Assembly: GCA_016716465.1 (NCBI GenBank)
Contig: JADJWH010000001.1
Location: forward strand, 365,414-429,413
Source: Gammaproteobacteria bacterium
GTDB lineage: Bacteria; Pseudomonadota; Gammaproteobacteria; SZUA-140
Length of the DNA stretch: 64,000 nt
Direction: 5' to 3'
Shown here: positions 48,882-60,923 of the stretch, piece by piece
Layout of the letters: the number at the start of each line of letters is the position of its first letter
How positions within the stretch are numbered: position 1 is the first letter of the stretch
Program-made: the position numbers and the translations under genes
The notes under the pieces: model-generated
What the model was told of the DNA's origin: nothing
Seen by the model: the letters and a program-made list of their open reading frames with translations, nothing else
The model's database searches: none

Positions 48882-50443
48882 GCGTCGACAGCTATCTGGA
48901 ACTCTTTACTTCCCTTTTCGGTTGGACCTTCTACGGCATTCTCTGGGATGTGTTGGTCGGTACCGGCATCGTCTATTTGCCGTTCCTGGGGATTCTGATC
49001 GACAACTGGCGCGAACCAGCGCAGGGCGGTGAGGTCGGTCATGCCAGCGGTCTCTCGCTGCGGCGCATGGAGATCGAGCTGTTTATCGCGTTACTGGTGG
49101 TGGTGCTGGCCGGGCAACCCGCTGCCCTCACGCCACTCAATGCCGGCACCTTGTCCTATTCCCCACCACCAACGCTATTGGATCCAACGCCGGCTGCAGC
49201 GACGGTGGCTGTTCCGCAGAGCACCTACGGCACAACGGGCTTCACCGGTACCGCCGCAACCGTTAATGTTCCCGTCTGGTGGTACGGGGTGATTGCACTC
49301 AGCTCGGGCTTAAATCACGCCATTGTCGAAGGCCTGCCGACCGTGGCGGATATGCGGACGTTCGAGCAGCAGGCGCATTTGGCCACCATTGCTGATCCAC
49401 GCCTCAGGCAGGAAGTGAGCGAGTTCTTCAGCCAGTGCTACATTCCGGCGCGTTCCAAATACCAGGCTGAACGACCAAACACAGCGGCCATCAATGGCAT
49501 TCTCACCACGTACGGGGTCGATGACCCGGATTGGATGGGCTCCCACGTCTATCGGGACACCTCGGGCTATTACGACACCCTGCGCCCAGCCAGCCCAATC
49601 ACTGGATGGGCATACATCGCGGCCAGAGATACGGAGTATGACGCCACCTCCCCACCGGCCTGGGGCAAACCCCACTGCAAACAGTGGTGGGAAGACGCGG
49701 CCATTGGATTGCGGGGAAAGCTGGTTACTGAGGCAGATGCCACCTCGGCCGGCTTCTCCGGACTGGTAGTCGCCATCGCGCCCGCTCTGGCCAGCGAACA
49801 GCAAAACGACGCCGTCGCCAAAACCGTACTGACCAACGCGCCGCCCTCCTGGTCGAACAATGAGTTAATCGCCAACAACGCATCCGGAGCAGGGTTGGTC
49901 AACACCGCCGGATCTATCATCAAAGGTGGTCTCGCCACCGGTGGTGTGATCACCGCATCAGCCCTGTTTTCCGTAACCATGACGGCCGTCTTACAATCAC
50001 TGCCCATGGTGCAGGCCATTATGCTGTTGGGTATCTATGCACTGCTGCCATTGGTGGTGGTTTTGTCCCGCTACTCCATTGCCATGATGGTGGTGGGCGG
50101 CATGGCCATCTTCACCATCAAGTTTTGGACGGTACTTTGGTACCTGGCAATGTGGGTGGATCAAAACCTGATTCTGTCCATGTATCCCGACGTTAACGTT
50201 TTCCTGCAGATCTTCGCCAACCCTGGCGAACACGATGCCAAGCGCATGCTGCTGAATATGATTACCACCAGCCTCTATCTGGGACTGCCGCTGTTGTGGA
50301 GTGGGATGATGGCGTGGGCGGGGGTGAAAGTCGGTAGGTCGATTGAGTCGGCAGCGAACCCGATCAAGGCGCCAGCGCAGGATGCTGGCAATCAGGGAGG
50401 AAGTATCGGCAAGATGGTGCTGACCAAAGGTAAGAAACGTTAG
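48878..50443 (+). CDS. traG: TraG N-terminal-domain conjugal transfer protein
   Basis: Multiple TM helices. Synteny as the last T4SS gene. Confidence 0.55.
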   Translation: MSVDSYLELFTSLFGWTFYGILWDVLVGTGIVYLPFLGILIDNWREPAQGGEVGHASGLSLRRMEIELFIALLVVVLAGQPAALTPLNAGTLSYSPPPTLLDPTPAAATVAVPQSTYGTTGFTGTAATVNVPVWWYGVIALSSGLNHAIVEGLPTVADMRTFEQQAHLATIADPRLRQEVSEFFSQCYIPARSKYQAERPNTAAINGILTTYGVDDPDWMGSHVYRDTSGYYDTLRPASPITGWAYIAARDTEYDATSPPAWGKPHCKQWWEDAAIGLRGKLVTEADATSAGFSGLVVAIAPALASEQQNDAVAKTVLTNAPPSWSNNELIANNASGAGLVNTAGSIIKGGLATGGVITASALFSVTMTAVLQSLPMVQAIMLLGIYALLPLVVVLSRYSIAMMVVGGMAIFTIKFWTVLWYLAMWVDQNLILSMYPDVNVFLQIFANPGEHDAKRMLLNMITTSLYLGLPLLWSGMMAWAGVKVGRSIESAANPIKAPAQDAGNQGGSIGKMVLTKGKKR

Positions 50444-50670
50444 TCGTTTTCGTACCAGCCGGTAGCATCGGTGCCGTCATCGAGTTTCCCTGTTCTGTAA
50501 TTCAGGGCTCCGCCTCGAACAGCACTGGAGACTGCATCATCAGACGTGGTGTCAGCGCTTTCAGCCAGCATACCAAGCATACTGCGCAGTAACTGGCCGA
50601 CCGCTGCAAAAATAGCGAAGACGGCTAGCAATATCTTTTGCAAACGAGGCCTTTCTTTTACTGTTGTCAC
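50440..50670 (-). CDS. small single-TM protein, last gene of the minus-strand defence operon
   Basis: Its ATG overlaps the stop of the DUF499 gene (ATGA coupling). Hydrophobic helix [15 protein letters not shown]. Confidence 0.45.
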
Positions 50671-59400: not shown

Positions 59401-60021
59401 GTCTAGGCGGCAGAGGAGTTGATTCTGTTCGTCGAAGTAGTTACCGGATGCACACTGTTCCTGCTTCTCACGGCTGAAGATTTCGAACTGGACGCCGAAT
59501 TTCTCCAACAATTCGTCCTGCCACTGCTCGGTGAGACCGCCGGGAGAGACGATCAGAATGCGTTTGGCATCGGCCCGCATCAACAGTTCGCGGATCAGTA
59601 AGCCAGCCATAATGGTCTTGCCGGCGCCGGGGTCATCAGCCAGCACAAACCGCAGTGGCTGCCGGGGTAGCATGGCTTCGTAGACCGCAGAGATTTGGTG
59701 GGGCAGCGGCTCGACGTTAGAGGTGTGTACTGCCATCATAGGGTCAAACAGGGCGGCCTGTGAGATACGGTATGCCTCAAGCCCGAGTTTGAAATCTTCA
59801 CCTGGCGCATCGAAGGCCCATGGTCGACCAGCCTGCGCCAGCTCAAGCCGTGCTTCGTCGGAGCGGAAGAGCATTTGCTCACCCAGACGGCCTTGGTTGT
59901 CTTTGTAGTAGACAGTGATTGCACTATCGCCGACCGGCTCGACCTGGACGATGCGGACAATTTCATTGCCCTGTATGCCTAAAACCTGTGCGTCCTTTTT
60001 GATGTCTTCGAGTTTGATCAT
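56446..60021 (-). CDS. SNF2-family helicase fused to a C-terminal PD-(D/E)xK nuclease-like domain
   Basis: [26 protein letters not shown]-terminus D-x-HIEVKG...ITVSRNE. Confidence 0.85.
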
Positions 60022-60923
60022 GAGCCCTCCGTGGCGACGCGGTTGTTCTGGTTGTAGCCGGGAGCGATGATCAGATTTTCCACGCCGTACAGCGCTTGTC
60101 TGTTCTTGAGCCAGAGGTGGTACTCCGGGCCTTCCAGGCTATGCTCTGCTGAGCAATCGACATTCCAGCGCCGGAGGACGTAACCGGCAACGGCAGCCCG
60201 AACATTGACCTTCAGTACGCCGTTTTCCATGGCGTAATCTGTTTCGATGGTCTTCGGGTGTTTCAGGCTGGGATGGGGGACGATTTCCAGCTCGACCACG
60301 CGATTCCATTGGATGTCGGATTCCCGACCTTCGTGCTCTTTTACCGGCCCGTCCAGAATTTCCGGATCTGAGATGCGGGTGACAACAAAATCCGCGAATC
60401 TTGACTGCTTCCGGTCATAGCCACGGACATGCCAGCGCAAACCATTGTCAACCAATACGAAGGGTACGATCTCGCGCGTAGTTCGGCCGCTGCTCAGAGA
60501 GCGATACACGATTTTGCTCGGCTTGTGCTGATGAATGGCGCGGGTCAGTGCTGACAAGGTATTCAGGTCAGGGTGATTGAGCTGCGCCGGGGCTTCACAA
60601 GCCACCAGCGCCTTGTGCTTCCCCACGAAGTCGTCGCCGAACCCATATGCGAGCGCTGCCATGGCCTGGCTGGGCGAATAATCGAACAACGGCTCAAAGG
60701 ATGTGCCCCGTATGTAGACCTTGGCCTTGGTGTCATATTCCAGATTTTCCGGGGCGAGATCCTTGTACAAAGTGATGTCTCTGGTTGCCGCAGCCTCCTT
60801 GATGCCGAAGCGGCTCACGAGGTCGTTTCGGCCAATAGTCCCCAAGAAATGCGCCTTGAAATCGATGTGCGATAGCCGCTCTTTTTGCGTTTGGTTGATA
60901 TCCAATGGGATGGCCTTGGGCAT
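60018..60923 (-). CDS. WYL-domain protein (BrxR/CapW-like putative regulator), first gene of the cassette
   Basis: [48 protein letters not shown] fits the WYL consensus. Its stop overlaps the helicase start. Confidence 0.6.

Follow-up and report, generated by a model that had tools for sequence, protein, structure and literature searches.

Close to one end of the analysed stretch of DNA, a 64-kb region referred to here as the window, five ORFs follow one another on the minus strand. They lie between a gene of an ICE type IV secretion operon and a divergent qat locus. The features assigned in this region are listed in the order of their coordinates.

48878..50443, plus strand: TraG_N-family gene, the final one in the type IV secretion operon of the ICE, forming the border of the cargo hotspot
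50440..50670, minus strand: small ORF (76 aa, GTG start), single-pass membrane protein gene assigned to the ICE backbone and not to Hma
50667..53516, minus strand: hmaC (949 aa), DUF499 AAA+/STAND-type ATPase without an N-terminal HEPN domain
53527..56436, minus strand: hmaB (969 aa), DUF1156 amino-methyltransferase, predicted to modify N6 of adenine, whose target-recognition insert is hypervariable
56446..60021, minus strand: hmaA (1191 aa), SNF2-type helicase with a NOV_C / PD-(D/E)xK nuclease fused at its C-terminus, putative effector
60018..60923, minus strand: brxR (301 aa), repressor of transcription belonging to the wHTH-WYL-WCX family, matched by Pfam WYL and by PADLOC WYL models
60967..60996, minus strand: predicted promoter of brxR-hmaABC, sigma-70-like (TTGACA, 18 nt, TATCAT), roughly 44 nt ahead of the ATG of brxR
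60993..61025, minus strand: candidate BrxR operator, two 11-nt direct repeats flanking the invariant core TGATGTCAACA, proposed on the basis of conservation
61283..63130, plus strand: qatA, KAP NTPase, divergent from brxR (PADLOC QatA 1.1e-149, Pfam KAP_NTPase 1.2e-64)
63130..63975, plus strand: qatB (PADLOC QatB 1.4e-36); the window ends before qatC/D

An earlier note on this DNA had described five ORFs, four tight junctions and a single minus-strand operon. The ORF list agrees with it exactly, and the coordinates bear out the dense packing. Between brxR and hmaA (ATGA), and again between hmaC and the small ORF (GTGA), the stop of the first gene and the start of the second share 4 nt; gaps of 9 nt and 10 nt separate hmaA from hmaB and hmaB from hmaC, respectively. 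Purine-rich motifs resembling Shine-Dalgarno sequences precede hmaA (GGAGGG), hmaB (AAGG), hmaC (GAGGA) and the small ORF (GAGGAAGAG). Matches to intrinsic terminators on the minus strand of the operon occurred at background frequency and were all located inside coding sequence. The promoter ahead of brxR agrees with the consensus at 11 of 12 positions, is the best site within 50200-61400, and both its -35 and -10 hexamers are kept in orthologous upstream regions. Judged from the sequence, brxR, hmaA, hmaB and hmaC are a single tightly packed unit under one predicted strong promoter.

The Hma core

All three central proteins matched the PADLOC models for Hma with E = 0. HmaA was aligned to PDLC00659 with 2220 bits (residues 1-1188 on model positions 1-1173 of 1176), HmaB to PDLC00661/00660 with 1801 bits over its full length, and HmaC to PDLC00662 with 1605 bits (residues 1-947 on positions 1-941 of 941). 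The genes are present in one copy each on the same strand of one contiguous locus, as in the PADLOC definition of Hma. Pfam returned the domains named earlier, i.e. WYL in the regulator, ResIII/SNF2, Helicase_C and NOV_C (residues 1062-1157, 5e-21) in HmaA, DUF1156 (1.4e-30) together with a weak D12-class MTase match in HmaB, and DUF499 (2.9e-31) in HmaC.

The catalytic motifs of the SNF2 ATPase, the PD-(D/E)xK nuclease, the DPPY amino-methyltransferase and the AAA+ ATPase are intact. HmaA carries a Walker A motif (GAGKT) at residue 134 and DEAH at 230, and its nuclease residues D1092, E1112, K1114 and E1129 are the counterparts of four essential residues of Halomonas HmaA, which blocks T4 in a manner requiring both helicase and nuclease residues (Liu et al. 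2024, PMC11232893). Motif I (FxDPFAGGG) and motif IV (DPPY) of HmaB are found at residues 141 and 569, and HmaC has a Walker A motif (GGGKT) at 87 and a Walker B motif (VILVDE) at 195.

Hma was named in 2021 (Payne et al. 2021, PMC8565338), partly characterised in 2024 (Liu et al. 2024, PMC11232893) and later re-described as the Type-1 'BREX-related' (Type-1 BR) system centred on DUF499 (NAR 2026, PMC12839542). The locus shares with these descriptions the same three full-length proteins in the same order and on one strand, the helicase-NOV_C fusion with its four catalytic residues, the DUF1156 methyltransferase with its recognition insert and the DUF499 ATPase. It differs from them by the BrxR repressor at its head and by an HmaC without the HEPN N-terminus seen in 1370 of 2446 Type-1 BR taxa (PMC12839542). 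Embedded genes, which occur in about 63-66% of Hma loci, are absent from the Hma locus of the window, where the two short gaps leave no room for them.

The earlier note rightly recorded the trio as a predicted R-M/BREX-like immune module, and the suspected match to a recently named system is found in Hma (also Type-1 BR) by the full-length PADLOC matches. The earlier note regarded its proposal as refuted if the cassette was an already characterised named system, and the three-gene core is one. The operon layout stands. The fused nuclease, which had been singled out as a special feature, is part of the HmaA model itself, and a helicase-nuclease fusion is found in 79% of Type-1 BR systems (NAR 2026, PMC12839542). 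The Hma core is already known: the system has a name, detection models of its own and one experimental paper. The regulator belongs to a well-studied family. The locus is not a new five-gene cassette and matters little as a discovery.

We also compared the operon with related systems. The helicase carries a C-terminal REase (NOV_C), DUF3780 gave no Pfam match among the five proteins of the operon and there is no room for a further gene, a combination that characterises Type-1 and not Type-2 BREX-related systems. PglZ, expected for BREX, gave no match among the operon proteins with Pfam or PADLOC, and again there is no space for an additional gene. Regarding the DrmA and DrmB pair of DISARM, no DUF1998 protein was found in the operon, and matches to the DrmD/DrmA models were confined to the helicase core of HmaA, with scores much lower than that of the HmaA model. 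Membership in DISARM, BREX or MADS is unsupported by Pfam and PADLOC.

A class 1 DISARM or type 3 BREX identity could still be argued from distant homology, as the HmaA helicase core also matches DrmD (4e-116) and BrxHI/BrxHII (about 1e-90), and HmaC is distantly homologous to BrxC and HmaB to PglXI. We consider this identity hardly conceivable: the HmaA, HmaB and HmaC models score far higher and over the full length (2220, 1801 and 1605 bits), gaps of 9-10 nt cannot accommodate DrmA, DrmB and DrmC or PglZ, BrxA, BrxB and BrxF, and the operon is flanked by brxR and qatA on one side and by the small ORF and TraG_N on the other. Type 3 BREX (BrxC, PglXI, BrxHII, PglZ, BrxA, BrxB, BrxF) nevertheless resembles Hma in its homologous ATPase, N6-methyltransferase and SNF2 helicase, and presumably in a methylation-based logic of self/non-self discrimination. 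Hma differs in the lack of PglZ, BrxA, BrxB and BrxF, in the predicted active PD-(D/E)xK nuclease of HmaA and in the DUF1156 N-terminus of HmaB.

The BrxR-type regulator and its candidate operator

In a phmmer search BrxR matched PDB entry 7QFZ, the crystal structure of BrxR of the E. fergusonii plasmid pEFER, with E = 2.8e-97 (residues 8-292 on 9-294 of 295). The homology is full-length, from the wHTH at the N-terminus through the central WYL domain to the extension at the C-terminus. Weaker matches were obtained to CapW (7TB5, 7.5e-32) and to Acinetobacter BrxR (7T8K, 1.6e-23). Regulators of this type head many different defence systems, and BrxR/CapW repressors are released by ssDNA (Picton 2022, PMC9122601; Luyten 2022; Blankenchip & Corbett 2022 and 2024, PMC11662680; Oshiro 2026 preprint, PMC13622015). 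As in the family, our gene opens a defence operon and has a conserved block proximal to the promoter, and it shares with BrxR of V. cholerae SXT its location on an ICE. It differs in the downstream system, which is Hma here and not BREX, type I/IV R-M or CBASS.

Of 80 related loci, 27 have a BrxR-like gene directly upstream of hmaA and on its strand (6 of 16 genome loci and 21 of 64 metagenome loci, two of the latter being partial copies). The earlier suggestion that the WYL gene replaces a component of the core or serves as its fourth one is not borne out, as the gene encodes a BrxR-family repressor that is present in about one third of related Hma loci. This association, which the main text of the Hma/BR papers (Payne 2021, Liu 2024, NAR 2026) does not mention, would place Hma among the systems controlled by BrxR.

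Repeats upstream of the WYL gene had been noted earlier, and they are real. An 11-nt direct repeat, AATCATATTGA, is located at 61015-61025 and again at 60993-61003 with a spacing of 22 nt, the second copy overlapping the -35 hexamer. Allowing up to one mismatch, the repeat has 4 matches in the window with 0.78 expected. The core TGATGTCAACA occurs there exactly once, and no second copy of the operator was found elsewhere in the window, for example ahead of qatA. The block ATGATGATGTCAACA together with TATTGAC is invariant in five orthologous upstream regions, although the corresponding BrxR proteins are just 64-85% identical.

The two characterised BrxR proteins bind inverted repeats of 10-11 bp with a 5-bp spacer, whereas in the candidate operator two direct repeats surround a core with a short palindrome. 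No long inverted repeat was detected upstream of brxR, where the only palindromic element is TTGA-N5-TCAA (4-bp inverted). The pEFER-type BrxR box ACCTAAT...ATTAGGT, for which a pEFER-like E. coli plasmid was used as a stand-in, is absent here; a similar sequence is present in loci L020, L063 and L064. Because the repeats are direct and the pEFER-type box is absent, it is conservation only that marks the block as a candidate operator.

BrxR could regulate qatA too, across the intergenic region of 359 nt. Taken further, the repressor might act mainly on the divergent QatABCD system, or on both as a regulator of the island, and not on Hma specifically. There is precedent for this in BrxR of pEFER, which controls a multi-system island, and a qatA homologue adjoins brxR not only here but also in L008, L024 and L065. 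These three are, however, the only ones of the 27 BrxR-Hma loci with a qatA match (the upstream sequence is short in some others), while brxR overlaps hmaA by 4 nt, and the conserved candidate operator lies on the brxR/hma promoter with its core present just once in the window. We consider control directed mainly at Qat or at the island as a whole improbable and favor Hma as the target of the repressor.

The small ORF and the ICE hotspot

The predicted product of the small ORF contains one hydrophobic helix, and the AF2 model shows a helix at residues 7-42, a confident TM helix, followed by a low-confidence tail. No Pfam, NCBIfam or PADLOC family was assigned to it, and a tblastn search of 72,556 plasmids gave no match. 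It belongs to a conserved family with an invariant C-terminal motif, with 51 homologues down to 40% identity and 158 cluster representatives in a profile search. Variable sites were distributed over the three codon positions as 7/4/22, and this bias to the third position indicates a coding sequence. A spurious ORF or a conserved DNA element is ruled out by the homologues and the third-position bias.

The distribution of the gene follows TraG_N irrespective of the cargo, which is why we assign it to the ICE backbone. It is present in 4 of 39 Hma loci, in all four with TraG_N beside it, and in none of the 35 Hma loci without TraG_N. The gene always abuts TraG_N: in L024 it lies 5.5 kb from hmaC and still adjoins TraG_N, and in L058, L060/61 and L062 it does so next to cargo other than Hma. 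In the window, the TraG_N gene and the small ORF run towards each other and share 4 nt at their 3' ends.

The 76-aa protein had been counted earlier as a member of the cassette, in what would be a novel five-gene system with the WYL protein and a translationally coupled TM protein as immune components. Such a proposal fits the 4-nt start/stop overlap found at each end of the core and the Shine-Dalgarno-like motif ahead of the small ORF; L006, L008 and the Nitrosococcus loci L048-L051 show the same overlap of hmaC with the small ORF. In view of the linkage to TraG_N described above, including loci without Hma, and of a BrxR-type repressor that is absent from about two thirds of related Hma loci, we regard five immune components as very improbable. 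The locus shows that closely overlapping start and stop codons at the border of a cargo module are no evidence of functional membership. The small ORF is probably co-transcribed here and expressed by read-through or coupling from hmaC.

The assignment of TraG_N is based on PF07916, matched on orthologues of 97-98% identity. The neighbouring ICE markers TIGR03744 (TraC), 03752, 03755, 03756 and 03754 (TraD) all scored above their curated cut-offs, and a tyrosine integrase gene (6648-7850) adjoins guaA, with GC content dropping from 0.67 to about 0.53 at this junction. These features identify the element as a PFGI-1/PAPI-1-class (MPF-G) ICE inserted next to guaA. No tRNA was found as the integration site, the junction adjoining guaA. 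The same ICE backbone carries different cargo in L058-L062.

The arrangement resembles 'GI-Hotspot 2' of PAPI-1/PAGI-1-type islands (PMC12629846), in which defence cargo is likewise located immediately distal to a TraG-family gene in the same class of ICE. The cargo is Hma and Qat here and consists of other systems in L058 and L062. In contrast to the Pseudomonas hotspot, the present ICE belongs to an environmental gammaproteobacterial lineage and carries the additional conserved 76-aa gene between TraG_N and the cargo. On this sequence evidence, the region 50667-61025 very probably represents a BrxR-regulated Hma anti-phage system that a PFGI-1/PAPI-1-class ICE carries as cargo in its TraG-proximal hotspot.

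Possible mode of action

The insert of HmaB between motif I and DPPY is replaced in nearly every relative. Within residues ~300-550 the mean identity among relatives is 26-58%, whereas the flanks are 80-100% identical. The insert is more than 80% identical in only 2 of 325 locus pairs, with HmaA, HmaC and the C-terminus of HmaB being 90-100% identical. Together with the intact catalytic motifs, the very high turnover of the target-recognition region supports an R-M-like mechanism, which we infer by analogy with characterised homologues.

In such a mechanism BrxR would bind the candidate conserved block over the -35 hexamer and keep expression of the operon low. Single-stranded DNA arising from infection or DNA damage would bind the WYL domain of BrxR, leading to release of the repressor and increased expression. 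The variable insert of HmaB would determine the motif at which this enzyme methylates the host genome, HmaC as a BrxC-like ATPase might assemble or license the complex on DNA, and HmaA would translocate on DNA and nick or cut unmodified invader DNA.

The one experimental study of Hma points in another direction, since HmaA alone protected against T4, growth of T4 on an HmaB-expressing host changed nothing, and the effect was called dormancy/Abi-like (Liu et al. 2024, PMC11232893). Accordingly, HmaA may work essentially by itself as a helicase-nickase, halting phage replication or inducing dormancy (Abi-like), with HmaB and HmaC as modulators or sensors. The protection in E. coli was full, HmaA was non-toxic without HmaB, T4 raised on HmaB-expressing cells was still restricted, and 15-19% of hmaA loci lack hmaB or hmaC. 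We judge the T4 test to be a weak one, however, because the DNA of this phage contains glucosyl-hydroxymethylcytosine and because HmaA was assayed heterologously with a single phage. Extreme turnover of a recognition insert is a signature of specificity subunits of modification-dependent systems, and that of the HmaB insert on an otherwise conserved background is not easily explained if HmaB is no more than a modulator. The homology of the trio to BrxC, PglXI and BrxHII of type 3 BREX also speaks against HmaA acting alone. We regard HmaA acting alone as a serious possibility, if a rather unlikely one, and prefer the R-M-like mechanism. The compact Hma locus, having its own regulator and no embedded genes, offers a convenient construct for testing R-M-like self/non-self discrimination by HmaB and HmaC.

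HmaC has a hypervariable patch of its own, 50 residues long and near the C-terminus (residues 826-875). Co-variation between the recognition insert of HmaB and this patch would have pointed to HmaC reading the same motif; none was detected (partial Mantel r = -0.02, p = 0.55), and there are clear counter-examples. A speculative and on balance doubtful reading is that Hma is a two-sensor system, in which the HmaB insert and the HmaC patch are independently exchanged modules that separate motif recognition from a second function in invader recognition or inhibitor escape, all gated by the ssDNA-sensing BrxR in this ICE-borne version. If so, recognition of the methylation motif and the second function evolve separately. 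As a weaker addition, the 76-aa ICE family might serve in conjugation or exclusion, with its expression tied to whichever cargo operon occupies the hotspot.

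Genes of the hma operon

The five minus-strand ORFs and the junctions between them that an earlier note had proposed from the sequence alone were recovered at exactly the coordinates claimed.

Minus-strand genes of the cluster
60018-60923, minus strand: brxR (WYL), ORF of 301 aa
56446-60021, minus strand: hmaA, ORF of 1191 aa
53527-56436, minus strand: hmaB, ORF of 969 aa
50667-53516, minus strand: hmaC, ORF of 949 aa
50440-50670, minus strand: small ORF, 76 aa, GTG start

From brxR to the small ORF, neighbouring genes overlap by 4 nt, are separated by 9 and then 10 nt, and overlap again by 4 nt; Shine-Dalgarno-like motifs lie 5' of hmaA, hmaB, hmaC and the small ORF. 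Pfam matches confirmed the domains named earlier: WYL in the brxR product, ResIII/SNF2, Helicase_C and NOV_C (a PD-(D/E)xK family) in HmaA, DUF1156 beside a weak D12-class MTase match in HmaB, and DUF499 in HmaC. HmaA matched its PADLOC-DB model with 2220 bits (E = 0, residues 1-1188 on model positions 1-1173 of 1176); HmaB (1801 bits) and HmaC (1605 bits) matched theirs over the full length, both with E = 0. The DrmD, BrxHI/II and DpdE models of PADLOC-DB matched the helicase core of HmaA alone, far more weakly than the HmaA model. HmaA carries GAGKT at 134 and DEAH at 230, and its nuclease residues D1092, E1112, K1114 and E1129 are spaced identically to those of Halomonas HmaA. HmaB has a 10-residue motif I at 141 and motif IV DPPY at 569. 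These are amino-methyltransferase motifs, so that the wording 'm5c' found in the Hma literature could be rejected for this enzyme. HmaC shows GGGKT at 87 and VILVDE at 195 and lacks an N-terminal HEPN domain. As read from the sequence, brxR-hmaA-hmaB-hmaC is a single promoter-led unit whose junctions are coupled and whose catalytic motifs are intact, and the core trio agrees with Hma, or Type-1 BR, in every feature that can be judged at this level.

The name Hma (helicase, methylase, ATPase) goes back to Payne et al. 2021 (PMC8565338), with 1,638 instances in 26 phyla; a later survey reported embedded genes in about 63% of 1,485 Hma systems. A 2026 NAR paper (PMC12839542) re-described the trio as a DUF499-centred 'Type-1 BREX-related' system whose members are homologues of the type 3 BREX proteins BrxC/PglXI/BrxHII. 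Since the helicase-nuclease fusion occurs in 79% of these Type-1 systems, the fused nuclease that had been singled out is the family norm. BREX proper is ruled out because PglZ is missing, as is DISARM because DrmA/DrmB are missing. The proposal of a five-gene cassette gives way to a named system (PADLOC E = 0), and the suggested match to a recently described system proved correct. The finding is an already known system together with a known regulator class, a known mobile-element class and a known hotspot type. Three small increments are added: BrxR is paired with Hma in about one third of relatives, which extends the list of BrxR-controlled systems; HmaB and HmaC each have a hypervariable module that varies independently of the other; and one ICE lineage carries, at its TraG_N end, an uncharacterised family of small proteins.

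Among 30 relatives, HmaA, HmaC and the HmaB C-terminus are mostly 80-100% identical, and HmaB residues ~300-550, between motifs I and IV, have a mean identity of 26-58%. Only 2/325 pairs of dereplicated loci share this insert at >80% identity, and nearly every related locus has an insert of its own. Such turnover, which resembles that of R-M and BREX methyltransferases, is what one expects of a domain that sets specificity and is under frequency-dependent selection. In HmaC, residues 826-875 form a hypervariable patch of 50 residues (mean identity 30-41%) that does not co-vary with the HmaB insert (partial Mantel r = -0.02, p = 0.55), which makes HmaC an unlikely reader of the same DNA motif as HmaB. 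Two related loci, L010 and L014, have 96% of the insert and 24% of the patch in common; for the window and locus L001 the values are 33% and 84%, respectively. Judged from these comparisons, insert and patch are swapped independently. The patch may provide a second recognition function or allow inhibitor escape, in line with a proposal in NAR 2026 (PMC12839542).

HmaA of Halomonas protected E. coli against T4 on its own, which required the helicase domain as well as nuclease residues D1084, E1104, K1106 and E1121; in isolation, its nuclease domain nicks supercoiled DNA (Liu et al. 2024, PMC11232893). By analogy, BrxR would repress the operon until released by ssDNA, HmaB would methylate host DNA, HmaC as a BrxC-like ATPase would license the complex, and HmaA would translocate and then nick or cut unmodified DNA. 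The predicted R-M-like step draws support from the turnover of the HmaB insert; its main caveat is that in the sole Hma experiments so far HmaA worked alone against T4 and HmaB was without effect (PMC11232893).

BrxR and the upstream region

In phmmer comparisons with PDB sequences the brxR product matched BrxR of E. fergusonii pEFER (7QFZ, E = 2.8e-97, residues 8-292 aligned), followed by CapW (7TB5, 7.5e-32) and Acinetobacter BrxR (7T8K, 1.6e-23). Full-length homology thus places the WYL protein in the BrxR family, whose members are dimeric wHTH-WYL repressors binding near their own promoter (including PMC9122601) and neighbouring BREX, type I/III/IV R-M, CRISPR-Cas and CBASS, among other systems. 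ssDNA detaches both CapW and the BrxR encoded on the V. cholerae SXT ICE from DNA (PMC11662680, PMC13622015). Plasmid-borne close homologues of the window BrxR head one type I R-M system and one BREX system.

When only loci with a visible upstream flank were considered, a BrxR-like gene immediately preceded hmaA, in the same orientation, in 6/16 genome and 21/64 metagenome loci (two of the 21 being partial copies), together 27/80 or about one third. This makes BrxR an optional regulator that recurs at Hma loci, and not a core component. The Hma/BR papers make no mention of BrxR in their main text, and within the literature library searched no paper connects HmaA, or DUF499 plus DUF1156, with WYL in its text, reference-list entries aside.

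Promoter and candidate operator of brxR
60996-60967, minus strand: sigma-70-like promoter TTGACA-18-TATCAT, 11/12 matches, best site in the region
61015-61025 and 60993-61003: candidate operator, two identical 11-nt direct repeats AATCATATTGA at 22-nt spacing

The promoter lies about 44 nt before the brxR ATG. The two AATCATATTGA repeats flank TGATGTCAACA, and the second overlaps the -35 hexamer. Five orthologous upstream regions share the block ATGATGATGTCAACA, as well as the -35 and the -10, without any change, but differ in the sequence around them, and their BrxR proteins have diverged (64-85% identity); the core occurs once in the window. The conserved block is a good operator candidate. 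Characterised BrxR operators are 10-11-bp inverted repeats with a 5-bp spacer, unlike the direct repeats seen here, and the pEFER-type box ACCTAAT...ATTAGGT is absent upstream of the window brxR, so that binding by BrxR is only inferred. An imperfect 19-nt direct repeat (TGATTTTTCCTGGGGCGAG / TGAGTTTTCGAGAGGCGAG, 22-nt spacing, 61084-61124) was also seen in the brxR-qatA intergenic region.

The ICE hotspot and the small ORF

The window starts with chromosomal genes (GC 0.67), the last being guaA (4691-6343). The chromosome/ICE junction falls at ~6343-6648, between the guaA 3' end and the integrase, where GC drops from ~0.67 to ~0.53; no tRNA genes were found anywhere in the window.

ICE genes framing the cluster
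6648-7850: tyrosine integrase, adjoining guaA
48878-50443: TraG_N, final gene of the ICE type IV secretion operon
61283-63975, plus strand: QatA (KAP NTPase) and QatB of a QatABCD defence system, divergent from brxR, cut short by the window edge

The element beyond the integrase is a PFGI-1/PAPI-1-class ICE, in which TraD, TIGR03752, TraC_PFL_4706, TIGR03756 and TIGR03755 all scored above curated cut-offs. Past TraG_N follow the small ORF, hmaCBA, brxR and the divergent QatA/QatB pair; brxR/qatA adjacency recurs in loci L008, L024 and L065. A TraG-bounded defence hotspot is known for PAPI-1/PAGI-1-type islands (PMC12629846). Nitrosococcus oceani genomes have a near-identical arrangement (HmaC 97%, TraG_N 98% identical); in strain ATCC 19707 (L048) an IS630-family transposase (1102-1933) interrupts hmaA, and hmaB, hmaC, the small ORF and TraG_N are intact.

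The small ORF is a real gene. Its product matched no Pfam, NCBIfam or PADLOC family, and has 51 homologues down to 40% identity, almost all of 76-77 aa, and 158 cluster representatives by profile search (E <= 1e-3). The N-terminal hydrophobic (TM) helix, the only part modelled confidently by AF2, is variable, and a C-terminal motif of G plus 22 residues is invariant; variable sites in the tail are distributed 7/4/22 over codon positions, the third dominating. Of 39 loci from an Hma-centred sample that include sequence beyond the 3' end of hmaC, 4 carry the small ORF, each time abutted by a convergent TraG_N; it was present in 0/35 loci without TraG_N. In L024 other genes separate it from hmaC by 5.5 kb, yet it abuts TraG_N. 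In L046 (9917-10464, Ca. Thiodiazotropha MAG) only the last ~77 hmaC codons remain beside the small ORF and TraG_N, with a 2659-aa gene upstream on the other strand; this is a decayed or replaced Hma in the same hotspot. In loci retrieved via the small protein itself, the gene abuts TraG_N and the very different cargo on its other side is a DUF4007/PAPS-reductase cluster (L058), MerR/MerC with efflux genes (L060, L061) or a BrxR, SNF2, DUF4391, MTase and ResIII system (L062). The small ORF occupies about 10001-10231 in L048, L058, L060 and L062. Wherever context is visible, it is convergent with and abuts TraG_N of PFGI-1-class ICEs, whatever the cargo. The TM protein thus belongs to the ICE backbone, where this borders the cargo hotspot, and not, as had been suggested, to the cassette. 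Its overlap with the hmaC stop reflects tight cargo abutment, and it may plausibly be expressed through read-through from the hma operon.

The L062 system (1-9926; BrxR, SNF2 helicase, DUF4391, N6_N4 MTase, ResIII-type endonuclease) is BrxR-headed, sits in the same ICE hotspot and, like Hma, is oriented towards the small ORF. Just inside the ICE past the integrase, a 1216-aa ORF (8466-12116, plus strand) without match in Pfam or PADLOC lies within the lowest-GC stretch of the window (0.48-0.51). A 1794-aa ICE protein (31573-36957, plus strand) with an AAA_16 P-loop matches the PADLOC models Avs4, DUF626_VIII and PDC-M54A in part and may be a STAND/Avs-like defence gene. Between TraC and TraU a gene with a NERD nuclease-related domain and a topoisomerase-type Zn-ribbon lies on the opposite strand (44769-45572, minus strand), at a site equivalent to 'GI-Hotspot 3' (TraU-TraC) of PAPI-1 islands, and its position is kept in all related ICEs seen (L048-L051, L058, L060, L062).
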